A stretch of 64,000 nt of DNA, from contig OY970364.1 of assembly GCA_963718565.1 (NCBI GenBank), forward strand, positions 1,376,001 to 1,440,000, read 5' to 3'. This DNA comes from an uncultured Verrucomicrobiae bacterium. Its GTDB lineage: Bacteria; Chlamydiota; Chlamydiia; Chlamydiales; Rhabdochlamydiaceae. Under the pieces are notes generated by a model. It made no database searches and had not been told where the DNA came from. It saw only the letters and a program-made list of their open reading frames with translations. The position numbers were made by a program, and so were the translations under genes. Below are positions 4,661 through 27,197 of this stretch, one piece after another (positions within the stretch are counted from its first letter, which is position 1; every line of letters starts with the position of its first letter).

Positions 4661-5257
4661 ATGCGACCAAAGGCCTGTCTAATACTTCTTATTCCTTTAC
4701 TTGATCAGCCATCTTTCACAGCAAAAGAGGCCAAAAACTTGGGAGTCTCTGCCGCAGTTTTAAGCTACTATGTTAAAGCTGGACAACTAAAAAGAATTCG
4801 GCATGGAGTATATCAAGCAATCAATTATCAAAATCCTGAAGCTTTCCGTTGGATAGACCTCATAGAAGCTGTTCATTCCATTAGTGGTGGAGTGGTATGC
4901 CTGATTTCTGCGCTTGCTGTGTATGATTTAACTGAAGAAATCCCTCGTCAACACTGGATTGGAATTCGACATGGAACTTCAGCTCGAAGTAGTCGTCAAA
5001 TTAAAATCGTTCGCTTTCGCGATCTCGATTTAGGCAAAACCGAAATCGAACTAGAAGGAGCCCGCATTTCAATTTTTGACAGGGAACGCACAATTATAGA
5101 TGCATTTCGCCTCTTGAGTCGAGAAACTGCTATTAAAGCTTTAAAATCAGCTGTAGCACAAGGTGGAAAAAACCGCATCGACCTAATAAAGCTTGAAGCC
5201 TATGCTAAAAAGCTTCAATTCGATATTTCACCTTATTTACTGAGTATAACCACATGA
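4661..5257 (+). CDS. abiEi: Type IV toxin-antitoxin AbiEi-family antitoxin
   Basis: N-terminal wHTH (FTAKEAKNLGVS...GQLKRIRHGVY), CLISALAVYDLTEEIP and FDRERTIID motifs; ATGA-coupled to the next gene. Confidence 0.85.
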   Translation: MRPKACLILLIPLLDQPSFTAKEAKNLGVSAAVLSYYVKAGQLKRIRHGVYQAINYQNPEAFRWIDLIEAVHSISGGVVCLISALAVYDLTEEIPRQHWIGIRHGTSARSSRQIKIVRFRDLDLGKTEIELEGARISIFDRERTIIDAFRLLSRETAIKALKSAVAQGGKNRIDLIKLEAYAKKLQFDISPYLLSITT

Positions 5258-6096
5258 TAAATGAACAAGCTCTCAAGGATAGACTCCAAACCATCGCCAA
5301 AGAAAAAGAGATTCCTTTTAATGCCTGCTGGAAACAACTTCTTTTAGAAAGATTTCTGACTCGATTAGCCCGCTCTTCCCACGTCAATAAATTTATATTT
5401 AAAGGTGGATTTCTACTTTCCTACATGATGAAAATTGGAAGAGAAACCGTAGACCTTGATTTTCTTTTAACGCAGATGAATGCCGAAGTAAAAGGGCTTC
5501 AAGAGGTTTTTGAAGAGATCGTATTGATACCGTCGGAAGACGGATTTACTTTTTCTTTTGAAGGCATTGAAATACTTTCTCAGCCGCATATGGAGTATTC
5601 CGGGTATCGTACAACTCTCAAAGTTTCTTTTGCCAAGATGAAAGATAAAATTCATGTAGATGTTGGCATAGGTGATATCGTAGAACCGCAGTACAAAGAA
5701 ATTAAACTTTTTGAATATCGTGGAAAGCCATTTTTTGAAGAATCCATTTCACTTTTAGTCTATCCTATCGAAACAATTTTTGCAGAAAAATTAGAGACCA
5801 TTCTTTCAAAAGGCTCTAGAAATAACCGGATGAAAGACTTTCATGATCTACTTTTACTTTTGCGTGATAAAAGCTTGCAAAGCTCTACAAAGCTGCATGA
5901 AAATGTGCAAAAAACATTTGAGCATCGTGGAACGACATTAAAGCCTATTCAGTTTGAGGAAGCAGGTCATAAGGCTCTTCAACAATTGTGGACAGCACAT
6001 CTACAGGGTCTTGGCGATGTAGCTAAAGAGCTTGAACTGCCAGAAAACATTAAGGAGGTCATAGACATACTCAATAGTGGTATAAGTCTATCTTAA
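5254..6096 (+). CDS. abiEii: AbiEii/AbiGii-family nucleotidyltransferase toxin
   Basis: FIFKGGFLL...RETVDLDF, ETIFAEKLETI and RMKDFHDL motifs. Confidence 0.9.
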   Translation: MINEQALKDRLQTIAKEKEIPFNACWKQLLLERFLTRLARSSHVNKFIFKGGFLLSYMMKIGRETVDLDFLLTQMNAEVKGLQEVFEEIVLIPSEDGFTFSFEGIEILSQPHMEYSGYRTTLKVSFAKMKDKIHVDVGIGDIVEPQYKEIKLFEYRGKPFFEESISLLVYPIETIFAEKLETILSKGSRNNRMKDFHDLLLLLRDKSLQSSTKLHENVQKTFEHRGTTLKPIQFEEAGHKALQQLWTAHLQGLGDVAKELELPENIKEVIDILNSGISLS

Positions 6097-9850: not shown

Positions 9851-10174
9851 TTATTTCTTGTTTCCATTATTTCCATTGCTCCCATTTCCGCCAGGCCCTT
9901 GACCACCGGTGCCACCTCTACCGCCTCCAGCGGGACCGTTGCCACCATTGCCGCCGTTCCCGCCTTTGCCCAGTTCGCTGTTACCACCATTGCCTCCATC
10001 GCCACCGCGACTGGAAGAACTGTTTCCGCCATTTCCCCCGTTGCCACCCGATCCATGCTTGCTGTCGCCGCCATTTCCTCCACGGCCGCCGTCAGCATGG
10101 ACATTAACAAACGAGATCAACATGACTATAACTGAAATTGAAAATGGGAATCGAAAAAAATGCTTTTTTTTCAT
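9851..10174 (-). CDS. Small secreted Gly-rich peptide 2
   Basis: Signal peptide ending VHA, then GGxGGxGGx(S) repeats. Confidence 0.75.
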   Translation of the reverse strand: MKKKHFFRFPFSISVIVMLISFVNVHADGGRGGNGGDSKHGSGGNGGNGGNSSSSRGGDGGNGGNSELGKGGNGGNGGNGPAGGGRGGTGGQGPGGNGSNGNNGNKK

Positions 10175-10176
10175 CT

Positions 10177-10407
10177 CTATGCTCCGTTACCACCATTTCC
10201 CCCATTCCCTCCGCTAGCTCCACCGTGTCCACCGGCTCCCCCGTTTCCTCCATTACCAGATCCACTATTTCCCCCATTACCTCCATCACCACCACTACCA
10301 CCTGCATGACCGCCATCTCCGCCATTTCCGCCATTACCAGCATGCAGGCCAGTCGACACCACAAAAAAAGAAATCATCGCTAACAAGCCAATTTTCTTCA
10401 ATTTCAT
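10177..10407 (-). CDS. Small secreted Gly-rich peptide 1
   Basis: MKLKKIGLLAMISFFVVSTGLHA, then almost pure GGN/GGD/GGH; start chosen at ATG 10407, ~7 nt after GGAG. Confidence 0.7.
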   Translation of the reverse strand: MKLKKIGLLAMISFFVVSTGLHAGNGGNGGDGGHAGGSGGDGGNGGNSGSGNGGNGGAGGHGGASGGNGGNGGNGA

Positions 10408-10526
10408 ATCCATTCTCCCGTAAAGAGCATTCATATTTAATCCCCTGATCTCCGTGATCATGAGCGATACGTTAACTAAAGAATTTGTCGCATTATTACT
10501 GCTTTCATTTTTTGGGAAGCACTCAA

Positions 10527-11603
10527 ATGACAACAGCCAATGCCTCTCTTCAACAAGAACTCATCCTATTGCGCAATGAACAGGCCTCTCTCCGAGCAAC
10601 TGTGTCGAATCTTTTGAATCAACTGAGCATGGCCATACAGGCCAATGCTGAATTGCGCATCGAAAATCAAACTCTCAGAGATGAAATTGCTCGCCTCAAG
10701 CAAACGCCCCCGCGCCCTAAAATACCTCCCGGCGATTTAGAAAATTCCGAGAAAGAACCAAAAGATGGGAAGGGGAATAGAGGGAACTCTGGTCGAGGCA
10801 AGCACCCGCGCAGTAAAAAAACAGGACTGACTTTCCACAATATCAACCGACTTAAGCCAGATACCATTCCCGAAGGGGCTATTTTTAAAGGCACTCGGAA
10901 GTATGACATTCAAGATCTCGTTTGCCAGGCATATAACACTCGATACGAGATCGAACGCTGGCAACTGCCAGATGGGACATACATCGAAGGTCAGATTCCA
11001 TTGCATATTCAGGGGCATTATGGAGCGGCCTTGAGAGCGCATGTCATCACGTTAGCCCATTCTTGCCGTGTTTCAGAAGAGCTGATTTTAGAGCAATTGC
11101 GTAGATACAAAATCGCAATTTCTGCCGGGCAATTGCATGCGATGCTGACAGAAAAACACGACCAGTTTCACGCTGAGAAAGCCGACCTTTTGGAAGCTGG
11201 AATAACATCCGGTCAAATTCAGACAGACGATGTGGGCACACGACATTGCAGCAAAAACTGCTACACCAATGTGATTTGCAACGAATATTTCGTCCATCTA
11301 ACGACGACCAACAGCAAAAATCGTATTAATTTCCTCACGATTTTGGCGCAGGGCCGAGGAGAATACCGATTTAACCAAGATGCCTATGATTACCTAGCCA
11401 CTCATAGGGATACAGAATGGTTGATTCAAGCGTTTAAAATTCGTCAAGATCCTGTGTTCCATACACAAGATCCTGGGAAAACATTTCTGGAAGAATTTGG
11501 GCATCTAAACTCAAATACCATTCGATTGCTTACTGAGGCCGGGTTGTTTGCCAGTCTAATCGAGCATGGTGTGCCCAAAAATCTGAATATCCATAGCGAC
11601 GAT
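10527..11603 (+). pseudogene. Truncated IS66-like transposase
   Basis: Coiled coil plus LRDEIARLK..PPRPKI, HYGAAL, ISAGQL, QTDDVGTRH and SKNRINFL motifs; breaks off after HSDD, so the C-terminal part is missing. Confidence 0.75.
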
Positions 11604-11708
11604 TTAATTTCCTATACCCTGCCTTCTTCAACCTCAATAATTTCTTTTTAATGGCCGATCAGCTATAAAGATGAAGACTGTAGGCCTTGTCTTAAGGATT
11701 GAAAAAAC

Positions 11709-14142: not shown

Positions 14143-17007
14143 CTATACTGTTGAATTTCGGGAAATCGAAATCCACTTGAAATCGACATCTCCATTGGGA
14201 GCAATGACTGCTTTTTCGACTTTTCCGCCTAAAATATACATGTAATTCGGGAAGAAGATGGGAATAATCGGCATTTCATCCATGAGGATCTGCTCTGCTT
14301 TGATCAGCCATTTTTCTCTTTGTTCCGCCTGAAAACATTGTAAAGCTCGATCTAGATAATTCGTGTAGTGGATGTTTTCCCATTGAGAAGAATTGTACAG
14401 ATTTGAACGGTCGCGAAATAGTTCCAAATAAGATCTTGGATACAGCGGAGATGTTGATCGATAACAAGACGCCATTTGGTATTCTCTTTTATCCAATAAA
14501 TAAGAAAGAGATTTCCATTCCATGTTCTTCAAGTGAATTTTAATCCCAAGAACAGATTGGATCTGTTCTTGGATGGTAAGGACTAGGCTTCGCTCTCCAT
14601 CTGCACTCCAATAAAGGGTGATTGGAGGGAATTCGTCGGGATGTATTTTGAGTTCTTTTAAACCTTCTTGGAAAAATTCTCGGGCCAATGAGGGATTACC
14701 ATCCCAATAAGGGATTTTTTGGCGAGACAAGTTGAAAATCGCATTAAAAATACAGGGCTCGCCCCCGAATTCTTGAGTGATTTGCTCTCGGTTAATCGCA
14801 CAAGCCAGCGCTTTTCGAATATGGGCTGAAAACAAAGGGAAAGAATGTGTATTCAGATAAATCCAATAGACTTGTGAAACGCTCTTTTGATGATAAGAGG
14901 CTAAGGTGTGAAATGGCCTTATCGATGAGGTCGTAAAAGGCTCTCCCACCCAATCCAGCTCTCCATTTTCAAACTGTTTGCCTATTAAGTTCACGTCTCT
15001 GACCATGGAAATGGTAATATCTTTTAGTGGAACATTCTTTTTATCCCAATAATAGGGATTCGATGTTAAATGAAGGCAGCTGTCCCGTTTCCATTGCTTC
15101 AAAAGAAATGGGCCATTGAAGTGATAAGGTTCTTGTTCTCCTCTATAAACTGGGGAAAAAATGGGATTAGAGATCAGGTGTAAAAAGTAAAAAGCGGGAT
15201 ATTCTAATTCGACAATAAGTGTTTTGGCATTGATCGCTTTGATTTTCACCTCATCTAGAGATTTTAGTCCTAAATGAGCCTTCTTTGCATTTTTTATGAT
15301 AAAAAAAAGGTCGGATCGCAAGCAATGAGATTGAGGAGCGATCGCCTTTTTCCAACTCTGTTCAAAATCGAAAGCAGAAACTTCTTCTCCATTGGACCAA
15401 CAATGGTTCCTCAAAATAAACGTGTAAATAGTATCTGAAGAAGAACGACGGATCTCTTTTGCCGCTGCAAGCTCAGGCTTGCCCTCAACACTGAGGCGCG
15501 TTAGCCCCTCGAATAAAGCCATTGCCAAGCAGCGGCATCGCTGATCAATGGCAATTTGTGGATTTAACGAAGGAGGATCTCCTTCTTGAAAATTCAGCCG
15601 GAGAATATTATCGCGCTCCTTGGTTTCGTCGATCTTGTGGATAGTGTGCTCTAAATTTGTCAATATATTCGAGCCCGATAAGACATCCAAATCCACAAAA
15701 CAAAGATAATGCTCACGTTCATACTCAAAAAAGCTATACCCTGCAGAGTGCATTTCTTTCTGCGTGTTTCTCAACTCTTTCAGCAAAGCATGATGAAAAG
15801 AAGGCGTAGATATCTTCAATAATGCAAATAGAGAATTTCCTTCTATTCTCTTTGCTACTCTTCCTCCGCATTCTTTTAAGTGCGAAATGACAAATGAAAA
15901 TAGCCGATGCGCCAAGGGAAGGTTGAGCAAAACTTGAAAATTCGCCGGTCTAAAAGCTTGGAAGATCTCTTGAATCAAAAGATGATCGTTTTCATGTTTA
16001 CTTCTAAAATGTTTTTTAATTTGCTCTAGCTGTTTGCTCTGTTGTGATAAAAGCCCTCCATTATAATCACGAAAATTTCCAAACATTTGTTCGACCAGTT
16101 TGGCAACATAACTTCTCGCTCGATCCAGATCGATTGACCAATTTTTTCCTAGAAATAAAGCACATTCTACTTCAAGAGAAAATAAAATCGCCTCTTTGAT
16201 ATCTCCCTTGGAAAAGGACATCAATGATTGCACTTTCTCCAAAGTCAAGTGGCAAGAAGAAGGTAAAGGATGCCTTTTTGAACAAAAAGGAGGTTCATTT
16301 TGCTTTCTCACACGCACTAGAATCACTCTGAAAAGTAAAACCTCTTGAATCTGTGATTGAAAGAGAATGATCACCTGAGGAAGATCCCTCTCAGATTTTA
16401 ATTCTTTAGCAAGCCGAACAGCACTCTTGTACGCCTCTTCTTCATTGCAAGAAAAAAGAAGTGAGGAGGAAAGAGATTGAATATTCTGCTTCAATTCACC
16501 AGGCAGTTGAGAGCGCAAAAGACTCATATCTTTTGCAGTGAAATTGTTTCCTCGCAGTCTTTCGACTTCTAAATAACAAAATAGAAAAGATCGGTCTCTT
16601 TCTCGGCAACAGTAAAAAGATTCCGGAATTGCTCCAATCCCTGGAAGCAGATTGACAATAGCGCGACTAATATGCTTTTCTTCCAGAACATCATAAGAGG
16701 ATTCCAAATTGACACCAATAGACACCCCGAAAGTGTCTCTTCCCGACGCTGGTGGCCGCGATAACTTTAGACTCAAAGCATATGGCTCCGATTTAATCCC
16801 ATGAAGCTTATGCCGAAGATGATATTGCAAACAAACGAGATGCTCAAGTTTTCTGAAATCTTTTCTCAAGAAAGAGGATGGATTAATTTCAACCAGGGTA
16901 CGCATTCCAATCTCGAACAATAGATCTCGATCGTAAATTTTAGAAAATCGCCGCTGTCGTTTCTTGAGAAGCTTAAAAAGCTTTAGCATGCATCCAATAT
17001 GGTCCAC
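14143..17007 (-). CDS. OppA-like solute-binding domain fused to a ~465-aa N-terminal domain, no signal peptide
   Basis: C-terminal half from LRLNFQEGDPPSLNP parallels the adjacent OppA; the N-terminal half is hydrophilic and includes FRDYNGGLL. Confidence 0.85.
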   Translation of the reverse strand: MDHIGCMLKLFKLLKKRQRRFSKIYDRDLLFEIGMRTLVEINPSSFLRKDFRKLEHLVCLQYHLRHKLHGIKSEPYALSLKLSRPPASGRDTFGVSIGVNLESSYDVLEEKHISRAIVNLLPGIGAIPESFYCCRERDRSFLFCYLEVERLRGNNFTAKDMSLLRSQLPGELKQNIQSLSSSLLFSCNEEEAYKSAVRLAKELKSERDLPQVIILFQSQIQEVLLFRVILVRVRKQNEPPFCSKRHPLPSSCHLTLEKVQSLMSFSKGDIKEAILFSLEVECALFLGKNWSIDLDRARSYVAKLVEQMFGNFRDYNGGLLSQQSKQLEQIKKHFRSKHENDHLLIQEIFQAFRPANFQVLLNLPLAHRLFSFVISHLKECGGRVAKRIEGNSLFALLKISTPSFHHALLKELRNTQKEMHSAGYSFFEYEREHYLCFVDLDVLSGSNILTNLEHTIHKIDETKERDNILRLNFQEGDPPSLNPQIAIDQRCRCLAMALFEGLTRLSVEGKPELAAAKEIRRSSSDTIYTFILRNHCWSNGEEVSAFDFEQSWKKAIAPQSHCLRSDLFFIIKNAKKAHLGLKSLDEVKIKAINAKTLIVELEYPAFYFLHLISNPIFSPVYRGEQEPYHFNGPFLLKQWKRDSCLHLTSNPYYWDKKNVPLKDITISMVRDVNLIGKQFENGELDWVGEPFTTSSIRPFHTLASYHQKSVSQVYWIYLNTHSFPLFSAHIRKALACAINREQITQEFGGEPCIFNAIFNLSRQKIPYWDGNPSLAREFFQEGLKELKIHPDEFPPITLYWSADGERSLVLTIQEQIQSVLGIKIHLKNMEWKSLSYLLDKREYQMASCYRSTSPLYPRSYLELFRDRSNLYNSSQWENIHYTNYLDRALQCFQAEQREKWLIKAEQILMDEMPIIPIFFPNYMYILGGKVEKAVIAPNGDVDFKWISISRNSTV

Positions 17008-17645: not shown

Positions 17646-18857
17646 TTAAAATCTCTTTGCTGAAAGCTTTTCGAATTGTCTGAATGGAATCAAAGTGACA
17701 AGAGCTGCGATAAAAGAAACACAAATAAGATAAAAAATACTCAAAGAATAATATTTTAGAACAATTATTGCTGATCCTGATATTAAAAAAGCAATTGAAT
17801 CGGCAGATTCGGCCAATCCGTATGTTTTTCCACGCTCATGCACTTTTCTGAGTTTGGAAATGATTGAAAACATAGTAGGAGATAAAAGAGCATTGCCTAT
17901 CGCGTGAAAAAAGTAACAAGCTGCTAGAACTGCATCAATATTATTAACAAAATGAGAAAGCGCAAAATAAGGCAACAAAGACACTACCGAAATTGTGTAG
18001 CCTACTTTTACTATTTTACTATCAGAAACGTTGGGGAAAAACTTTACAGAATAAGTGCCGCATAAATATCCGATCATCATCAAAATTTCTATAATAAAAG
18101 ATTCGTAATTGCTGAAGTCAGCATAATATATCAGAACGATGTATATTGAAATTTCAAATGAAATCCAAGTGAGCAGAACCATTTGAATGGATTTGTCTTT
18201 GAGATCTTCTATAATCTCACGGCAGATTAGAGCGAAAAATTGAATAACTTTCACTCTTCTAACTTCCTTAAACTTAGCGTCTTTTAAATCAAAGAAGTAT
18301 TTGATGCAAATTATTAATATAAATATGAACAATATCGACAATAACAATGTTGCGTTTATGTCAGAAAATTTCTTTTTTAGTAAAATCAATATCAAATAGC
18401 CAATTGCATAAGAAGCTGTTGCTAACGCGAAAGAAAAACGCAAATTCTTGCCCTCCGCATTACCCAAATCGCCGACCGCTGCCCAGCAGATTGGAACTGT
18501 ATTTCCTAGAACCCCCTTCGAGAGATTTAATAGACAGAGTAGAGTAATGTAATTAAGAAACTGCAAGTCGTAAAGGTATACAAATATTAGACCTATAAGA
18601 GAAAATGTGATAGAAACAATCAAACTAATTTTTCTTCCATAGAAGTCTGAAATACCAGCTTGGATGGGAGAAAATATGATCTGTAAAAAAAGAAAACCAG
18701 AAAATAGAAGGATTTCGCGAAATGTTGACTCATTTCCAAAAGAGCCAGCTATGTAGTTATCGCAGAGAACGTCGAAAGCGACAAAAAATAAAATTAAAAC
18801 AAGAAACTTAGTTTGCTTTGAATGTTTCTTTAACATTTGCTTTGTTGAGTGGCGCAC
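17646..18857 (-). CDS. MFS transporter (DHA1/TetA-like efflux)
   Basis: About 12 hydrophobic segments; motif A AGISDFYGRK; late HERGKTYGL motif. Confidence 0.85.
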   Translation of the reverse strand: MRHSTKQMLKKHSKQTKFLVLILFFVAFDVLCDNYIAGSFGNESTFREILLFSGFLFLQIIFSPIQAGISDFYGRKISLIVSITFSLIGLIFVYLYDLQFLNYITLLCLLNLSKGVLGNTVPICWAAVGDLGNAEGKNLRFSFALATASYAIGYLILILLKKKFSDINATLLLSILFIFILIICIKYFFDLKDAKFKEVRRVKVIQFFALICREIIEDLKDKSIQMVLLTWISFEISIYIVLIYYADFSNYESFIIEILMMIGYLCGTYSVKFFPNVSDSKIVKVGYTISVVSLLPYFALSHFVNNIDAVLAACYFFHAIGNALLSPTMFSIISKLRKVHERGKTYGLAESADSIAFLISGSAIIVLKYYSLSIFYLICVSFIAALVTLIPFRQFEKLSAKRF

Positions 18858-18931
18858 TTAAAAGAATGAAATGCACCGCAACCCTACTTAAACACAATGT
18901 CAAGGACAATTGTCAACAAGTTTTTTTGTTG

Positions 18932-19720
18932 CTAATTTTTTGTTTTTCGCGCTTTGATGGTTAGCTGTTGGTACGGCAAAAGAATCTCACCATCTGCCGT
19001 GCTCACATTCACTTCCAGACTTTCTTTTACAGCTTTGTTTAGAAAGGATTCATGTAGTTCTTCTGGCAACGGAACATAACAGGTTAGCCAGCCTTTAAGA
19101 TAGGCTTTTAGCTCTTCAGTATTTTTATATGCTGAAAGCCGCCATTCGGGGAGAAATTCTTCAAATTTCATGCCGTTGGATTCAAGTATACTACGGTATT
19201 CGTCGATAGAAAGCATGGTGCGGGCAGCAGACAAAAGCTTGTAGGAAGAAAATTCCTCGAGGGTTTTTTCAAGGAAAGTAATATAAGCTGATTCTTTTAA
19301 GTATGTCAGGATCAATAAAGTTCCACTTGGCTTAAGAAACCTGCACATCAAATCAAGGGCTTTTTTAGGCTCTCTTACCCACAACAGGCAGCTGAAGCAG
19401 ATGATTACATCAAAGCTGCCGTTATCAAAATCCATTTCTTCCGCTTTTGCTTCTTTGAAGTCGAGATTTGGATACCTTGCATTCGGAAATTCTTTTTTTG
19501 CCAGTTGGATCATGTTTGCAGAGGCATCGATGCCGATGGAAATGCCTTGAGGTGCTTGCAGCGAGATTTCTGCGATAATATTTCCAAAACCACAACCTAC
19601 GTCCAATACAGAAGAGAATTTTGTCAATTCTAGTGATTTTAGGAGCTCTTGAGCTCGTTCGAATTGAGGTTTTGAATTATTTTGATAATAAGACGCATCA
19701 ACGTCAACTATTTCTTTCAT
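18932..19720 (-). CDS. Class I SAM-dependent methyltransferase (small-molecule, Tam-like)
   Basis: VLDVGCGFG, GIDASANMI, FDVIICFSCLLWV and LKPSG motifs. Confidence 0.9.
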   Translation of the reverse strand: MKEIVDVDASYYQNNSKPQFERAQELLKSLELTKFSSVLDVGCGFGNIIAEISLQAPQGISIGIDASANMIQLAKKEFPNARYPNLDFKEAKAEEMDFDNGSFDVIICFSCLLWVREPKKALDLMCRFLKPSGTLLILTYLKESAYITFLEKTLEEFSSYKLLSAARTMLSIDEYRSILESNGMKFEEFLPEWRLSAYKNTEELKAYLKGWLTCYVPLPEELHESFLNKAVKESLEVNVSTADGEILLPYQQLTIKARKTKN

Positions 19721-19816
19721 AAAATGGATACAGGGGTTTTCATTTTTCGAGCATATTTTATTAAAAAATGGTATTATTATCCCAGCTTGAATTTTTCCTC
19801 AATTAAATAATTTATT

Positions 19817-21634
19817 ATGAGAATAGCGCACCAGGTATCTCAAAATTTTCAAAGTTTCTGCGATCTTTTCCGCTCTCAGGTTTCAAAAAATCCCGAAGCA
19901 ATAGCAGTTGTCTTCGAGGAGAATTCTCTGTCATATGCAGAGCTGGACAAGAGATCTTCTCAATTAGCGAACTTCTTAGAGGAAAATAATGTTAAATCAG
20001 AAAGCATAGTTGCATTAAGCCTCCACAACAGCATCGAGCTTTTAGTTGGGATGTTAGGCATTATTAAATCGGGAGGGGTTTATCTCCCAATCGATCCGAA
20101 TTATCCGAAAGAAAGGATTGAATCAATAATCAGAGATTCTAACCCAGTTCTTGTGTTAACGGAGGATAAATTAAAAAGCTTATTCCTTTCATTTCCATGC
20201 AAAGTCGCTCTAGTCACTGAAATCCCTTATAGTGATCTCATTCACAAAAAACTCATCAAACCCGATCATGCAGCTTATGTCACCTATACTTCTGGGTCTA
20301 CAGGAAAACCAAAAGGGATTGTGATGGAGCATCGAGCTCTATCACATGCAGCTTTGTGTTATCAGAAATTGCATCCAGACCGGCTGGTTTCGCTAGTGGC
20401 TGGTAGTATAAGCTTCGATGCGGGTTTGCTCGTCATTTCGCACACTTTATCTCTTGGAGGGATGGTGTGCATCCCTAAAAATGAAAGTGTTGTGGATCCT
20501 CAATATTTCATTGAGTTAATCCAAAAACACAGCATCAATTATACTCTCTGCGTTCCTTCCTTTTATTTGATGATATTGAGTAAATCACGAAAATTGCCTT
20601 CTTTGCTTTGTGTTGATTTGGGAGGAGATACTCTTCCGAATGAGCTGCCCGCCCTTCATGCTGAGATTGCTCCCAACGCGATTCTACACAACGTCTATGG
20701 ACCTTCGGAATACGCTGTGGGTGCCACATTTGAAAAAATTTACGATCCCGCAAATAAGCAATTCAATAGAATTTCTATTGGAATGGCTTTGCCCAACACT
20801 CAAGTCTACATTTTGGATGAAAGCTTAAAAGAGGTTGCTCCTGGAATAAAGGGCGAAATTTACATTGGAGGCGAAGGGCTTGCCAGAGGCTATCTGAATA
20901 GAGATGTTCTTACAAACGAAAGATTCCTCTGGGTCACTTTTCTGGGGCGATCCCCGATTCGCCTATACAAAACCGGAGATTTTGGCCGATTTTTATCCAA
21001 TGGAAATATCGAATTCCTTGGCCGAATGGACCATCAAGTGAAAATTCGAGGATACCGTGTAGAGATGAGAGAAGTCGAACACGCCATTTCTCAATACCCG
21101 GATGTAAAAGAAGTTGTCGTGATGGCCCAAGAGGGACAATTAATCGCCTATTTCTGTTCTAAGAATGAGATTTCGAAGAAACTGCGCATTTATCTTCAGG
21201 ATATTCTCCCTCAATACATGGTCCCTTCTGCCTTCATTCAGATTGAAAGTTGGCCTCTGACGCCCAATGGAAAAATAGATAGGAATGCCCTAGTTGCACC
21301 GCTGAAGGGGGCATCTTTTGAACGGCCCCTATCCGAAATGGAACGAACACTATTTCAAATCTGGAAGCAGGTGTTAGGCAACGATAGATTTGGGACAAAG
21401 GACAATTTTTTTGAGCTGGGAGGTGACTCGCTCCAGATTGTGAATGTACAGACAATTCTCGAGGAAGCAATCGGGAAGAACATAAGCATCGCAGTACTTT
21501 TCCAGTATCCAACGATTTCCCAACTTGCAAACTATCTTTCAACAGATGAAGCTGTTCCGCAGAAAAACCACGAACGTAGGGAAAAACAAAAATCTGCTTT
21601 TCAACACTTTAAAAAATTCCACAATCGAGAATAA
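19817..21634 (+). CDS. Stand-alone NRPS module, adenylation plus thiolation (A-T)
   Basis: LSYAEL, YTSGSTGKPKG, SFDAG, NVYGPSE, GEIYIGGEGLARGYL, YKTGD, GRMDHQVKIRGYRVE, PLTPNGKIDR and PCP motif NFFELGGDSL. Confidence 0.95.
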   Translation: MRIAHQVSQNFQSFCDLFRSQVSKNPEAIAVVFEENSLSYAELDKRSSQLANFLEENNVKSESIVALSLHNSIELLVGMLGIIKSGGVYLPIDPNYPKERIESIIRDSNPVLVLTEDKLKSLFLSFPCKVALVTEIPYSDLIHKKLIKPDHAAYVTYTSGSTGKPKGIVMEHRALSHAALCYQKLHPDRLVSLVAGSISFDAGLLVISHTLSLGGMVCIPKNESVVDPQYFIELIQKHSINYTLCVPSFYLMILSKSRKLPSLLCVDLGGDTLPNELPALHAEIAPNAILHNVYGPSEYAVGATFEKIYDPANKQFNRISIGMALPNTQVYILDESLKEVAPGIKGEIYIGGEGLARGYLNRDVLTNERFLWVTFLGRSPIRLYKTGDFGRFLSNGNIEFLGRMDHQVKIRGYRVEMREVEHAISQYPDVKEVVVMAQEGQLIAYFCSKNEISKKLRIYLQDILPQYMVPSAFIQIESWPLTPNGKIDRNALVAPLKGASFERPLSEMERTLFQIWKQVLGNDRFGTKDNFFELGGDSLQIVNVQTILEEAIGKNISIAVLFQYPTISQLANYLSTDEAVPQKNHERREKQKSAFQHFKKFHNRE

Positions 21635-21636
21635 CC

Positions 21637-24375
21637 ATGGACCAAATTCCAGAACATGCCATTGCAATCGTCGGTATGTCAGGCAGGTTTCCTGGCGCTC
21701 ATAACATTGAAGAATTTTGGGGAAATGTTCTTCACAAGAAAGAAACGATTACCGCTTTCACCGACCAGGAGTTGTTTGAATCGCGAATTCAATCGCCCAA
21801 TTATGTAAAAGCCAGAGGAATTTTAAAGGATGTCGAGTATTTTGACGCAGATTTCTTTGGAATTCCGCCTCTAGAAGCACGGCTTACAGACCCACAGCAT
21901 CGAATTTTATTAGAATGCGCATTAGAAGCATTGGAAAATGCTGGATATTGCCCCGACTCTTATTCAGGTTCGATTGGGATTTATGCAGGAACGTCAAGGA
22001 GCACTTATTTTCTCAACAACATCCTTCCGCATCGCGATCTCATGGAGACAATGGGTGACTATCTCGTGCGGATTGGGAACGAACAAGATTTTTTAACGAC
22101 AAAAATCTCTTACAAGCTGAACTTAAAAGGTCCAAGCCTGACGGTACAGACGGCTTGTTCGACATCCCTTGTGGCCATTTGCACAGCTTGCAATCAACTC
22201 CTCACCTACCAATGCGATATGGCCCTGGCGGGAGGAGTGTCCATTTTTATACCTCAACATAGTGGTTATGAATATCAAAAAGGGATGATCTTTTCACCCG
22301 ATGGCCATTGCAAACCTTTCGATGTTGATGCTCAGGGAACAGTCCCGAGCAATGCCGCTGGCATTGTTGTTTTAAAAAGATTGGAAGACGCTTTAGAAGA
22401 CAAAGATCACATCTATACTGTCATTAGAGGCTACGGCATGAATAATGATGGCGGGGGAAAAATGAGCTTCTCTGCTCCTAGCGTCAAAGGGCAAGCCGAG
22501 GCAATAGGGGCTGCGATTTCTATGGCTGGAATCGATCCAGAAACGATCGGGTATGTGGAAGCGCATGGCACAGCAACCCATCTAGGAGATCCCATAGAAA
22601 TGGATGCTCTTACTAAAGCCTTCAGAAGCCATACTCAACGAGATGGTTTTTGTGCGATTAGTTCTGTCAAAAGCAACATTGGACACTCTATGGAGGCAGC
22701 TGGAGTCGTTGGATTCATCAAGGCTGTTCTAGCCTTGAAAGAAAAAATAATTCCGCCCGCGCTCCATTTCAATACTCAGAACCCGCAAATTAATTTTAAA
22801 AATTCCCCTTTCTACGTGAATACTGAACTGAAGAATTGGTCTCCTGGAATCGCCCCGCGGCGTGCGGGCGTGAGTTCTTTTGGCATCGGTGGAACAAATG
22901 CCCACATGATTCTCGAGGAAGCTCCGAACGTCAAAAATTCACGTGAAGTAGAAGGCCCCCACCTTTTAATTCTATCGGCAAAAACGAATTCCGCATTAAA
23001 TGCAATCACCCGCAACTTATCAAATTATTTAAAAGAGAATCCTGAAGTCTGTCTAGCCGATGTTTCTTTTACTTTGCAAATGGGCAGAAAAGCATTCGAC
23101 CATCGACGCGCAATTGCCTGTCGGAATCGAAGCGAAGCGATCGAATCATTGCTAACTTCTGATTCTAAGCCCTTCGCCCCGCAAACATCTATGGAAGAGT
23201 ATGTCTCTAATACAGGAAAATCATGGGCATCAGGAGAGATCATCGATTGGCAAAATTACTGGGTCCATCTAGAAAGAAAGCCTTCCCGCATTTCTCTTCC
23301 GACTTATCCTTTCGAAAAAAAAAGGCACTGGATCGATCCGCCCATAACAACAACTGTACCACAACGATTTGAAGCTTTTCCCCAAAACTTAGAGCTTGCC
23401 TTGCTAAACATTTGGAAGAAGTTTTTGGGAATGGATAGTATCGGAATCCATGACAATTTTTTTACTTTAGGTGGAGACTCCCTTTTAGCGATCCAAGTTA
23501 TCACTCAAATACAAGATGAAATTGGATTTTCCGTAAGATTGCAATCGTTTTACCAATTTCCCACTATTGCTGAGCTTGCCGAAGTCATTTCCCAACAACT
23601 AGATTCCAATTCCTGCATTGTCCAATTAAAAAGCGGAGACGAACGTTTACCCCTTTTTTTAATTCACGGTATAGATGGCAACATTTTTTCTTTTAGATCT
23701 CTTGTCGATTCAATGTCTTATAAGGGGCCCATTTTTGGAATCCAGGATAATAGTTTTGCCAAAAAGGATGTGAAAATTGAAGAGATGGCTTCCTCATACA
23801 TTAGCGAAATTAAGAAAAAATACCCTGATGGACCTTATCTTATTTGCGGCTTTTCATTTGGCGGGATCATCGCTTACGAAATAAGTCGGCAGTTACATCA
23901 AATGGGGAATTCACCCAAATTTATTGGGATGATAGATACGATAAACCCTCAATACGACTCTGTGCCTTTAAGCAATGATTTGGAGATGCTCACCTTTTTA
24001 ATTGAACTTTTGGAGGGAAATGAAATTTCCCGTGAAAAGAATTTCTTAGAAGAAAGATTGTTAAAAAGCATGGGAATGGATGTTTTTCCTGAAAATGAAC
24101 GAAAAAATTACTTCGAGCGAGTCCAATGTTACTTAAAATCATTAAAGCACTATTTTCCAAAAGAGAATCATCAGGATCTGACATTTTTCGAGGCTAAGGA
24201 TCGCTTCATCCGCATGAAGGACATTCCCTTGATCACCACTTGGCGATCGTTACTTAAAGGAGCTGTAACCGTTCGTGAAATAACAGGCAATCATTTAAAT
24301 ATTTTAAAGCCCCCTCACCTCAAAAATCTTGCCCATCAATTGGATCTTTCTCTTGAAGAAGCTCTGAAAAAATAA
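21637..24375 (+). CDS. Type I PKS, KS-ACP-TE, lacking an acyltransferase
   Basis: KS triad VQTACSTS, EAHGT, NIGHS; the post-KS linker runs almost directly into LPTYPFEKKRHW; ACP motif FFTLGGDSL; TE motifs IHGIDG, GFSFGG, GNH. Confidence 0.93.
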   Translation: MDQIPEHAIAIVGMSGRFPGAHNIEEFWGNVLHKKETITAFTDQELFESRIQSPNYVKARGILKDVEYFDADFFGIPPLEARLTDPQHRILLECALEALENAGYCPDSYSGSIGIYAGTSRSTYFLNNILPHRDLMETMGDYLVRIGNEQDFLTTKISYKLNLKGPSLTVQTACSTSLVAICTACNQLLTYQCDMALAGGVSIFIPQHSGYEYQKGMIFSPDGHCKPFDVDAQGTVPSNAAGIVVLKRLEDALEDKDHIYTVIRGYGMNNDGGGKMSFSAPSVKGQAEAIGAAISMAGIDPETIGYVEAHGTATHLGDPIEMDALTKAFRSHTQRDGFCAISSVKSNIGHSMEAAGVVGFIKAVLALKEKIIPPALHFNTQNPQINFKNSPFYVNTELKNWSPGIAPRRAGVSSFGIGGTNAHMILEEAPNVKNSREVEGPHLLILSAKTNSALNAITRNLSNYLKENPEVCLADVSFTLQMGRKAFDHRRAIACRNRSEAIESLLTSDSKPFAPQTSMEEYVSNTGKSWASGEIIDWQNYWVHLERKPSRISLPTYPFEKKRHWIDPPITTTVPQRFEAFPQNLELALLNIWKKFLGMDSIGIHDNFFTLGGDSLLAIQVITQIQDEIGFSVRLQSFYQFPTIAELAEVISQQLDSNSCIVQLKSGDERLPLFLIHGIDGNIFSFRSLVDSMSYKGPIFGIQDNSFAKKDVKIEEMASSYISEIKKKYPDGPYLICGFSFGGIIAYEISRQLHQMGNSPKFIGMIDTINPQYDSVPLSNDLEMLTFLIELLEGNEISREKNFLEERLLKSMGMDVFPENERKNYFERVQCYLKSLKHYFPKENHQDLTFFEAKDRFIRMKDIPLITTWRSLLKGAVTVREITGNHLNILKPPHLKNLAHQLDLSLEEALKK

Positions 24376-24468: not shown

Positions 24469-24532
24469 AATGCAAAGCCTGGCATGGATCCAAATGACAT
24501 TCAGTGCTTTCCATAGGTTTTTGAGGACGTAC
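24469..24532. repeat. Family I repeat, half copy
   Basis: Near-identical (1 mismatch) to 63825-63888: AATGCAAAGCCTGGCATGGATCCAAATGACATTCAGTGCTT.CCATAGGTTTTTGAGGACGTAC. Confidence 0.85.
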
Positions 24533-24645
24533 CCATCTAGATACTATACTTAGTCACCGCTATGCTTTTGAAAAGATGGCATAAAACAATGGCCAAAGAA
24601 CATAGGCATAGAAAAACTTTCTAAAATACTCTTGACTTCTTACTG

Positions 24646-25152
24646 CTATTTAGCCTCTTTCTTTTTTTCCCTTAAAATGGCCCGGCTTAAATGTTCTTGA
24701 AGGTCCGTAAGCGCAAGTGAAATGCCATGGTTAAAGTGGTTTTTAGCCATCGTTTGAGTAATATCATTCATAACCAGCCGCAGTCTTTCATTTCTATCAG
24801 ATCGCGTGGACGTAAGCGCTTCTTCCGCATCACTGTAAATCTCATTGTAGATGAACAATTTTTCTTGCGTTTTAGAAATACTTTTTAAGTGAGTTGACGC
24901 TTCGGTAAGTCTCAGTGAAATCTGCACACATTCATCGATGTTGAACAAAACAGTTTTCGAATAAAATGCTTGGACTTTTTCCTGCAGGTCCAGAAATTGT
25001 TGCCGTTCTGTTACAGCTACTTGATGAACTGCAGGCAATTGCTGTGCAATCGGCATATTCGAAATTTGTTGATTAATTTGAGCTAACTTTTGCTGCAATT
25101 GCGTCACTTCTAACAAGAGCTGGCTACTAGTAATTTGAGACATCATGGCCAT
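24646..25152 (-). CDS. Hypothetical helical protein, paralog of the upstream gene's N-terminal domain
   Basis: QLLLEVTQLQQ, ASTHLK.IS.TQEKL.IY.E.YS shared with 25184-26461; GGAG RBS before ATG 25152. Confidence 0.75.
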   Translation of the reverse strand: MAMMSQITSSQLLLEVTQLQQKLAQINQQISNMPIAQQLPAVHQVAVTERQQFLDLQEKVQAFYSKTVLFNIDECVQISLRLTEASTHLKSISKTQEKLFIYNEIYSDAEEALTSTRSDRNERLRLVMNDITQTMAKNHFNHGISLALTDLQEHLSRAILREKKKEAK

Positions 25153-25183
25153 GGAAATTCTCCAGGGTGTTGTCTTCACGCTT

Positions 25184-26461
25184 TTAGATTCCCCAAGCTG
25201 ATTTCAAGCTGTTTTGGATTTCAACAATCGATTGAAGTTTGGTCTTTTTTTCTGGCCCATTAGTAAAAATTACAAAAGCATTTCTTCCGAAATCTCCATG
25301 AAATCGAGAATCATCAGGATTTATTAGAGCTGGGTTACTTTTTCTGGATTCAGTATGTAATCGATACAGGTTTCCAAAAAGAGCATGGGCGATATTCCTT
25401 TCATTTGGCAAGTTGACTTCTTCAAGAACCTTCAAAAATGCAGAGGTCGCGTGGGCATCCTCGGAATTAACCGCACCTTCTAGTCCAGACAGGGCTTTAA
25501 GGAGTACACTTGCTCCAACAACATCGGGTGTTTCTCCTTTGAGAAGAATTAGGGCGTCTTGTAATTCTTTTATAGATGTCTGTAAAGTCACCATCCTGTT
25601 TTCTTCTGGCTTAACCGGAATTGGAGTGACTTGCTGAGAGCCCGGGCTTGTTGCTGATAGGATCGCTTTGAAGTCTGCCATCATTTGTTTGGATAGAGCT
25701 TCATCTGTGCGGGTTAGTAAAATGTGGAGATTACTGAACGTATTGAAAACGGTATTGTACATGTGAAGAAACTGTGTATCTTCTTTTAAAGAAGGATTTG
25801 CATTAGAAGCAATTCTCAGCTTTTTGAAGAGATATAAAAGCCGCCCTTGGATGTCTTCAGAAGAGCCTTTTTGTTGCATCCGTACATCGTATTCTTTCCT
25901 AAGCAAACCCAGATCAGAATTTTGTGAAGTTGAAAAATTTTGAGGGGTAATAGGAGTTTTATGCTCTTCCTTTTTTCCCTCTAAAGTAGCCCGGATTAAT
26001 TCTTTTTGAAGGTCTATAAACGCAAATGCAATATCACGATTAAAGGTGTTTTTGGTCGTTGTTTGAGTGATATAGCTCACGACTGACTGCAATTTTTCAT
26101 TTCTATCAGGTTGTGTGGACTTTAGCGCCTCTTGGGCTCTACTATAAACTTCTCTGTAGATCAACAATTTTTCTTGTGTCGCTGAGATGTTTTTCAAATG
26201 GGTTGACGCTCCAGCAAGTTGCTGTGAAATTTTGACAGAATCAGTGATATCGAACAGATCCGTTTTTGAAAAGAACGTCTCTACTTTTCTATGCAGTTCC
26301 TGAAATTGTTTCTTATCTTCAGCCACTTTATCAATTGCAGACAATTGCTGTTTGATCGGCAACTTCGAAATATCTTCATCAGTTTTAGCTAATCGTTGCT
26401 GCAGTTGTGTAACTTCTAATAAGAGTTGTTTGCTAATCACTGAAAAAGTAAGTGCGGCCAT
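25184..26461 (-). CDS. Hypothetical helical protein (effector-like)
   Basis: 425 aa ORF with AGGAG RBS; no recognisable catalytic motif. Confidence 0.8.
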   Translation of the reverse strand: MAALTFSVISKQLLLEVTQLQQRLAKTDEDISKLPIKQQLSAIDKVAEDKKQFQELHRKVETFFSKTDLFDITDSVKISQQLAGASTHLKNISATQEKLLIYREVYSRAQEALKSTQPDRNEKLQSVVSYITQTTTKNTFNRDIAFAFIDLQKELIRATLEGKKEEHKTPITPQNFSTSQNSDLGLLRKEYDVRMQQKGSSEDIQGRLLYLFKKLRIASNANPSLKEDTQFLHMYNTVFNTFSNLHILLTRTDEALSKQMMADFKAILSATSPGSQQVTPIPVKPEENRMVTLQTSIKELQDALILLKGETPDVVGASVLLKALSGLEGAVNSEDAHATSAFLKVLEEVNLPNERNIAHALFGNLYRLHTESRKSNPALINPDDSRFHGDFGRNAFVIFTNGPEKKTKLQSIVEIQNSLKSAWGI

Positions 26462-26561
26462 AAAAAATTCTCCTGTCTATAATTGTGCATGTTGTTTCAG
26501 TACAGAGGAACTAGATTAATCTTCTTAAGGGAAATTTTTCTAGCATTTAATCACCTGGACT

Positions 26562-26735
26562 TATACCGAAATGAACTCAAGATTTGGTTTTTGGCTACGT
26601 CGGGCAGCCACTGTATTTGAGCCCACCTGCATCGCACAACTTATTCAAGTTGTGCTGCTTCGGCGTCGCATACGCTGGCTCAAATTCAGGGCGCCTCCTT
26701 GCCAAATTCCCAAATCTTGAGTTCATTTCGGTATA
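26562..26735. mobile_element. Family B ERIC-like MITE, 174 bp
   Basis: TIR TATACCGAAATGAACTCAAGATTTGG / CCAAATCTTGAGTTCATTTCGGTATA; central hairpin GCACAACTTATTCAAGTTGTGC. Confidence 0.92.
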
Positions 26736-26808
26736 GGCCAAGATTTGAACTGATTTCGCGAGCGTCAGCGAGTGAAATTAGTCCAAAGTCCAGAATCACC
26801 AAGCTTTT

Positions 26809-27025: not shown

Positions 27026-27197
27026 TATACGGCGCGCGGTTAGGTTTGGCGAATTTTGACTCTGCGAGACGAAGCAAAAGCGAAGCGAAGCGGCCGAACG
27101 AGCGAGACCATTGCTGAATAGCAAGGCAAGCGAGAAGGATCGATTTGGCAAAGTCGCAGCCTGTCAAAATTCACCAAACCTAATCGCGCGCCGTATA
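27026..27197. mobile_element. Family E MITE, 172 bp (related to family D)
   Basis: TIR TATACGGCGCGCGGTTAGGTTTGGCGAATTTTGAC / GTCAAAATTCACCAAACCTAATCGCGCGCCGTATA. Confidence 0.9.

Follow-up and report, generated by a model that had tools for sequence, protein, structure and literature searches.

The cassette and its assembly line

The window analysed here is a 64,000-nucleotide stretch of contig OY970364.1 (assembly GCA_963718565.1), a single-contig, 95% complete chlamydial genome. At positions 17646–24375 it carries an intact four-gene cassette that, judged by its sequence, is probably a working minimal hybrid of a non-ribosomal peptide synthetase (NRPS) and a polyketide synthase (PKS), and whose closest named homolog is labelled Rhabdochlamydiaceae. 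Two genes lie on the reverse strand, encoding a major facilitator superfamily (MFS) exporter (17646–18857; 403 aa; Pfam MFS_1, E 3e-16) and a class I S-adenosylmethionine-dependent methyltransferase (MT) of the carboxyl O-methyltransferase type represented by juvenile hormone acid O-methyltransferase (JHAMT) and Tam (18932–19720; 262 aa; Pfam Methyltransf_31/11). Two more lie on the forward strand, 2 nt apart: a stand-alone protein of adenylation and thiolation domains (A-T; 19817–21634; 605 aa; Pfam AMP-binding and PP-binding) and a protein composed of a ketosynthase (KS), a linker of the kind that joins KS and acyltransferase (AT), an acyl carrier protein (ACP) and a thioesterase (TE) (KS-ACP-TE; 21637–24375; 912 aa; Pfam KS N- and C-terminal domains, KS-AT linker, PP-binding and Thioesterase). 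All four reading frames are open. The 96-nt region between the divergent MT and A-T genes (19721–19816) is presumed, again from sequence, to act as a bidirectional promoter; promoter scanning performed at chance level (22 found vs. 17.9 ± 4.0 expected), as did terminator scanning, and no terminal repeats bounding the cassette were found.

An initial annotation of the window had described this layout (the four genes, their spacing and divergence, and the lack of condensation (C), AT and ketoreductase (KR) domains), and it is borne out by the open reading frame (ORF) coordinates and by zero Pfam matches to Condensation, Acyl_transf_1 or KR in the cassette proteins. Residue checks likewise agree with its view of the active sites: the KS triad (C174/H310/H350) and the GNEQDF and VQTACSTS motifs are present, and the peptidyl carrier protein (PCP) Ser538 (in GGDSL of the A-T protein), the ACP S615 and the TE triad (S740/D767/H886) are intact, with catalytic residues kept in 20 of 20 aligned PKS loci. 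In the Protein Data Bank (PDB), the KS closely matches KSs of hybrid lines, colibactin ClbC/ClbK among them, and KSs of this NRPS-hybrid type accept aminoacyl chains.

The A domain passes TIGR01733 (370 bits vs. a cut-off of 317), and its specificity code, DALLDGVVGK—including Asp235 and Lys517—is that of an amino-acid-activating NRPS A domain; the positions were set by PheA motif anchors, and the code reproduces the one initially aligned by hand. Applied to andrimid proteins, the same extraction assigned AdmK to the Val type and AdmP to the Gly type, the latter by what we take to be the Gly code. Asp235 occurs in all A domains examined (28, 14 and 48, in overlapping sets); as it is invariant and a lyase is absent from the genome, a cinnamate starter was rejected. 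DALLDGVVGK is common to four of the 28 and Asp299 is found in seven, while the remainder carry Glu322 codes (e.g., DPLLSAEIGK). The window A clade is sister (SH support 94) to seven carrier-less A domains, most with Asp299, among them three with DPLLDCVMGK (a fourth such row is also listed) and one with DPLLDCAIGK. One of the nearest generic A domains has DSALIAEVWK, given as a His code in PMC12283262, whose text and one supplement hold no code of this family, though its tables may be pictures. Because of that neighbour's code and the AdmH-like enzyme of sister cassettes (below), the substrate would be of the aromatic class; because an aminomutase gene of the 4-methylideneimidazol-5-one (MIO) type occurs in one of 15 PKS-cassette genomes and AdmJ is distant (25% identity), an alpha-amino acid is likelier. 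An ordinary aromatic-class alpha-amino acid (Phe/Tyr/Trp/His) is thus the most likely substrate. Fold searching with the A-T model gave generic NRPS matches, and the C-terminal helix of the protein (residues 582–603) is a candidate docking element.

The window genome holds one modular KS and one FabF-size KS. The sole AT found, at about 480033–480863 of the genome contig, is of FabD type (GLSLG/AFHS) and lies beside the fatty-acid ACP; AccA is present, no C domain was found genome-wide, and a cluster-encoded dedicated discrete AT, a trait of canonical trans-AT PKSs, was not found. The sole phosphopantetheinyl transferase (PPTase) found is a 130-aa AcpS, at about 493813–494202; searches with Pfam, tblastn and a custom hidden Markov model (HMM) revealed no Sfp-type enzyme. 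With FabD the only AT and AcpS the only PPTase in the genome, loading and priming would be borrowed from housekeeping metabolism. The initial annotation had suggested malonate loading in trans (e.g., by FabD) and had asked where in the genome a PPTase lies; FabD now stands as the only AT available for the former, and the latter is answered by a single enzyme of AcpS type.

Descent, distribution and selection

A KS tree (129 rows; FastTree, midpoint root, trans-AT reference sequences not included) places 74 rows in one clade (SH 99) made up of 50 AT-less proteins, 7 natural A-T-KS-ACP-TE fusions, 16 proteins with AT remnants and one with a full AT, i.e., the AT is deleted in 57 of 74. The other side of the tree holds mainly full-AT proteins, many of them named cyanobacterial; with trans-AT references outside the tree, the nearest KS relatives are cis-AT KS-AT-ACP-TE proteins, those of cyanobacteria forming the nearest outgroup of the cassette family. 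Among the remnants, GHSxG is gone in 14 of 14 aligned and 114–229 of 280 AT columns are filled, as against 0 of 280 in the window protein, a clean deletion. Five orthologs carry half a C domain before the A domain. These sequences suggest that the family derives from a longer line by stepwise reduction to its final NRPS module and terminal PKS. The initial annotation had allowed that close orthologs might retain a full AT, making this a decayed copy. One full AT and 16 remnants do exist; the 57 deletions and the residues kept in the 20 loci checked tell the other way, and with the AT-less state fixed in many orthologs, purifying selection (below) and intact residues, the decayed copy was rejected and the minimal AT-less line upheld. 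Larger chlamydial NRPS-PKS lines were also seen (L006, L049, L051–L054), in some of which an AT-less KS-ACP belongs to a separate KS branch.

A KS match at E ≤ 1e-90 was found in 37 of 400 Chlamydiota genomes. Flanks were examined for 20 of the 36 genomes other than the window's (16 weaker ones were left out): 14 had the same A-T and KS-ACP-TE pair and six held other NRPS-PKS lines. The cassette is present in at least 15 of the 400 genomes, across four families, and in 1 of 18 congeners searched; an MFS scan of metagenomes returned 16 loci, five of them with the pair. Across 20 PKS loci, the MFS gene is present in 19, the MT in 12, a lipocalin-like gene in 10, Sfp in 10 and an AdmH-like gene in two, counts that uphold the initial placing of MT and MFS within the unit. 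The MFS is the most constant cassette member: it lies within 5 kb in 14 of the 15 PKS loci not found via the MFS itself, and its family (116 representatives at E ≤ 1e-30) consists almost exclusively of chlamydial records. A scan of species genomes led by the MFS gave 24 loci, nearly all titled chlamydial (many repeat known loci), with an A, KS or MIO gene nearby in 17. Gene order is frequently shuffled, the gene set still being clustered. In three cassette-free congeners no cassette gene occurs within 15 kb beside LysM-pheT, where flank synteny is too weak to define an empty site.

The same MFS also occurs in a sister cassette family together with an AdmH-like MIO enzyme (PDB 3unv, E 2e-190), in 30 of 401 genomes. 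Among the 20 MIO places examined beyond locus L041 (n = 31 in all), a carrier-less A domain of the window family was found in 14 and the MFS in 20, rates that are inflated, since six of the ten places left out lack a family gene within 1.5 kb. MIO-MT fusions occur in sister cassettes L106 and L108, and the protein P0275 is an A-MT fusion. The loci L090–L109, L070 and L072 combine an AdmH-like MIO enzyme and the same MFS with a JHAMT-like or other methyltransferase, with or without a carrier-less A domain. One genome (G413; completeness not established) has a carrier-less cassette with the code DPLLDCVMGK and no MIO match.

MT and lipocalin-like genes appear to replace each other. Ten PKS loci have the MT only, seven the lipocalin-like gene only, two both and none neither (L047, which is cut, excluded); the exclusion has an uncorrected p of 7e-4 and is not significant with independent pairs. 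As no PKS locus lacks both, the pattern suggests that the two proteins are alternative finishing steps. The lipocalin-like protein (e.g., L039 6305–6742, L041 879–1322, L042 7634–8122, L043 7281–7742, and others) has Lipocalin_5 look-alikes only, with no relative found in the PDB, and Pfam, tblastn and custom HMM searches found no such gene in the window genome.

The cassette is under strong purifying selection on two time scales. Against congener G005, dN/dS is 0.10 for the MFS, 0.09 for A-T and 0.12 for the KS gene (MT dS is saturated), similar to the 0.10 of the neighbouring LysM gene. Against sequencing run X6, 22 of 38 changed codons are synonymous vs. a neutral 23% (pN/pS 0.22, p 5e-6), a comparison that rests on 40 of 120 differences. 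Decay is seen in relatives: insertion sequence (IS) elements interrupt the MT and MFS genes of L040, and the KS gene of L038 is split in the TE.

Proposed chemistry and competing explanations

We propose, at a probability of about 0.5, that the line joins one amino acid to one malonyl unit, releases the chain by lactam formation as an NH-free tetramic acid, and that the product is methylated at some position and exported. Specifically, the observed domain anatomy suggests that the A domain would adenylate one amino acid, presumably the aromatic one named above, and load its own T domain. FabD would load malonyl onto the ACP in trans and AcpS would prime both carriers, roles given to them since the genome searches revealed no other AT or PPTase. 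The KS would condense once, as is standard for its type, to a 4-amino-3-oxoacyl-ACP with a free amine; lactam formation would release an NH-free (i.e., N-unacylated) tetramic acid; the carboxyl-type MT would methylate the acidic enol oxygen, a plausible acceptor, to a 4-methoxy-pyrrolin-2-one; and the MFS would export the product into the host compartment. That the line is active and adds one malonate to one amino acid is very likely; tetramic-acid release, given such activity, is the probable outcome; and enol O-methylation, given that release, is only marginally favoured, being the weakest step. The aminoacyl plus malonyl logic and the tetramic-acid release put forward in the initial annotation remain the best guess. 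Secretion of an enzyme into the host was considered and rejected, as the exporter appears to belong to the unit.

The A-T plus KS-ACP-TE architecture is already known (andrimid AdmP/AdmM; MucE), and the cassette works like MucD/MucE, AdmP/AdmM and Dol15F/G yet fails a defining feature of each. MucD/MucE of Streptococcus mutans (mutanocyclin/reutericyclin) likewise pair one NRPS module with an AT-less KS-ACP-TE, and MucE closes the lactam ring and uses a trans malonyltransferase in vitro, as described in PMC10161427. According to the same source, MucD has a starter C domain supplying the N-acyl group that MucE needs, and MucABC acetylate the ring, whereas the cassette has no C domain and a methyltransferase instead; Pfam scans of the window and ortholog neighbours revealed no MucABC-type genes (no genome-wide search was made).

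AdmP/AdmM, on a Vibrio coralliilyticus plasmid (NZ_CP048695.1, L110), combine an A-T-sized NRPS with an AT-less KS-ACP-TE of 877 aa, in a cluster that also has an MFS and whose AdmH is close to the MIO enzyme of the sister cassettes; the Adm names on these proteins are our assignment, guided by gene order. They differ in sequence (30% identity to the window for the KS, 27% for A-T), in their Gly-type code, and in that no methyltransferase is annotated. They also end a long line with the AdmO C domain and transglutaminase-like enzymes, as PMC13151354 and PMC5216899 describe it. The window genome has no MIO enzyme, no C domain and one modular KS; transglutaminases were not searched for.

Methoxy-pyrrolinones have precedents in Dol15F/G, althiomycin and chalkophomycin (PMC13643306, PMC3445576, PMC11085572). 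As reported there, Dol15F/G (dolastatin 15) and althiomycin (Alb3/AlmC) join an amino acid and malonyl, release by a TE and use a stand-alone O-methyltransferase, Dol15G acting on the tetramic acid from a terminal KS-AT-ACP-TE (PMC13643306); althiomycin also has an MFS exporter, Alb1 (PMC3445576). Unlike the cassette, whose AT is deleted and which has no upstream modules, the Dol15F and althiomycin modules are described as having a cis AT and capping a long N-acyl peptide.

Several observations weigh against parts of the proposed tetramic-acid route, beginning with its substrate and carrier priming. No match to the window A code was found among published codes. In favour of priming by AcpS, Asp precedes both carrier Ser in 10 of 10 loci without an in-cluster Sfp and is lost in at least one carrier in eight of nine loci with Sfp, a pattern that depends on one well-supported independent pair and is not significant with independent pairs. 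E. coli AcpS is reported to require that Asp and also helix II Glu41 (10.1101/2025.01.28.635281); against it, the carriers lack the Glu41 equivalent, the PCP having Asn there and the ACP Gln. In four of the loci without Sfp the sequence stops no more than 2.4 kb from the core, and for two such loci the genome encodes another PPTase outside the cluster; among five cassette genomes searched, G005, G197 and G208 have a single AcpS-size PPTase and G269 and G329 a second. Priming of the carriers by AcpS thus stays an interpretation of these sequences.

Release and methylation raise further objections. The TE is generic (best PDB match AB3403) and has no diagnostic cyclase feature, and MucE rejects unacylated D-Leu-SNAC (PMC10161427), so that an NH-free ring is not among the products of the closest enzyme. 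A profile search gave JHAMT (PDB 9un4, E 1.8e-36) as the best PDB match of the MT, whose model (pLDDT 92.9) has its highest TM-scores, 0.70–0.71, to JHAMT and 4VPMT2, with a putative Anabaena methyltransferase first by E-value. In JHAMT, Tyr7, Gln14, His115 and Trp116 contact the carboxylate and the His-to-Ala mutant is inactive, according to PMC13223930 and PMC8526772. The MT shares the JHAMT fold and its Tyr, Gln and Trp contacts (Tyr12, Gln19 and Trp114, invariant in 12 of 12), but differs in having <20% identity in structural alignments and, throughout the window MT clade, Leu113 in place of the His (or Asn/Gln) before the Trp. Dol15G is compared with MmcR (3GWZ) in PMC13643306, unlike the JHAMT-like window MT, and PDB 10QU is not among the matches listed for the latter. 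The MT is missing from seven of 19 informative loci. The MT tree mirrors the A-domain tree, the His-less clade pairing with the window and carrier-less A clades. The clade sister to that of the window MT is found in PKS-free cassettes whose A domain is carrier-less; MTs of MIO loci have His in 11 of 18 and Met in the seven beside Asp299-clade A domains. Because the His-less type also occurs in PKS-free cassettes, the enol methylation step is uncertain, and the MT may act on an amino-acid derivative rather than on the tetramate. A BioC-like role was rejected (80 bits vs. a cut-off of 185).

These features of TE and MT bear on the explanation in which the TE hydrolyses the chain, and the linear 4-amino-3-oxo acid is turned into a methyl ester by an MT that is a true carboxyl methyltransferase, or decarboxylates to an aminoketone that could dimerise to a pyrazine. 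The closest solved relatives of the MT are carboxyl O-methyltransferases with the Tyr/Gln/Trp set conserved, a plain acid as methyl acceptor of the family is implied by the L106/L108 MIO-MT fusions, and the TE lacks a cyclase signature. On the contrary, a thioester with a free gamma-amine should lactamise readily, the seven loci without an MT would need a stable unmethylated product, and the window MT itself is without the carboxylate-binding His; we consider hydrolysis rather unlikely.

The pairing of MT and A clades is instead relevant to a scheme, also doubtful and if anything more so, in which the A domain takes a beta-amino acid (e.g., beta-phenylalanine), leading to a six-membered piperidine-2,4-dione or its methyl ether, or in which MT and A domain act on the amino-acid precursor before extension. 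AdmH-like aminomutases accompany two of the 20 PKS loci and neighbour 14 A domains that lack a carrier, and the window A clade is sister to seven such domains, with the His-less MT clade mirroring this. Against it, tblastn and a custom HMM found no MIO enzyme in the window genome, AdmJ, which handles beta-Phe, has the code DMLSLGAMCK and 25% identity, and the G413 cassette does without an MIO match within an assembly whose completeness is not established.

It is improbable that the cassette is silent here, a relic on its way out after loss of an Sfp-type PPTase. While half of the 20 loci have their own Sfp and none was found in the window genome, relatives such as L040 and L038 are decaying, and 17 of 18 congeners searched lack the cassette, purifying selection on two time scales, four open frames and the retention of the cassette beside a single AcpS-size PPTase in G005, G197 and G208 argue for function. 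Highly improbable is that the cassette forms the end of a longer line, fed with an acylated chain by C-domain modules located elsewhere, as happens for andrimid or dolastatin 15: the architecture equals AdmP/AdmM and five orthologs have a half C domain, but that half matches the Pfam model in its C-terminal part only, and in the single-contig genome there is no C domain, no second modular KS and, above E 1e-19, no further NRPS A domain.

More tentatively, the tetramic-acid route may belong to a chlamydia-wide modular small-molecule system that shares MFS, A domain and carboxyl-type MT, with PKS, lipocalin-like protein, Sfp and aminomutase as optional parts; here C, AT and PPTase would have been shed in favour of fatty-acid-synthesis housekeeping, including an AcpS-primed PCP, to give a free methoxy-pyrrolinone acting on the eukaryotic host or co-infecting microbes. 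If exported by this obligate intracellular symbiont, the product would be a candidate for interaction with the host, and a two-protein line, close to the smallest possible hybrid and easily reconstituted, makes the chemistry directly testable. Within the family, proteins with an intact cis-AT, with dead AT remnants and with a clean deletion make up a natural series. The family also shows what may be a change from Sfp to AcpS, and each of the two bears on the origin of AT-less lines and on minimal-line design.

In the literature within reach (subscription journals and MIBiG were outside it), we found no published description of the cassette or its product, no work linking AT-less KS-ACP-TE, tetramic acid and FabD, and no described small-molecule product of any chlamydial NRPS-PKS; for aminomutase or phenylalanine ammonia-lyase (PAL), no paper naming chlamydiae was among the matches listed. 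A chlamydial antiSMASH survey reports many clusters, most of unknown function, among them an "NRPS-like" cluster with shinorine as top match in S4CHLAM7 (PMC9666466). S4CHLAM7 is the named source of homolog P0052, so a cassette member may already be counted, undescribed, in that survey.

Other features of the window

OppA-like genes had been taken in the initial annotation as sensors in a possible small-molecule signalling or host-manipulation system. They exist (SBP_bac_5) but fall outside the conserved unit, and a sensor role was rejected for want of conservation: one lies within 5 kb in 2 of 20 PKS loci, the window being one of the two, in none of the 24 MFS-led loci, and further OppA paralogs occur in the genome. 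The protein at 14143–17007 (reverse strand) has an OppA-like binding domain behind a 470-aa N-terminal region without a Pfam match, and two paralogous regions elsewhere in the genome.

Upstream, an AbiEi/AbiEii type IV toxin-antitoxin pair occupies 4661–6096 (forward strand). Encoded in tandem on the reverse strand, at 9851–10174 and 10177–10533, are two small proteins that are rich in glycine, contain GGNGGNGG repeats, appear to have signal peptides and give no Pfam match, and a 388-aa forward-strand ORF (10485–11651), with a weak coiled-coil match as its only Pfam match, resembles by eye what we take to be an IS66-type transposase.

Just 3' of the PKS gene, a dispersed repeat of ~65 bp (24469–24533), MITE- or REP-like, gives 85 blastn matches genome-wide, its own copy among them; the top 40 are 91–99% identical. 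Beyond it lies a paralogous gene pair on the reverse strand without a Pfam match (24646–25179 and 25184–26461; 55% identity over 159 aa), a third related stretch of which occurs elsewhere in the genome. Two long intergenic inverted-repeat pairs (26555–26742 and 27026–27197; arms of 33 and 58 nt) precede the LysM gene.

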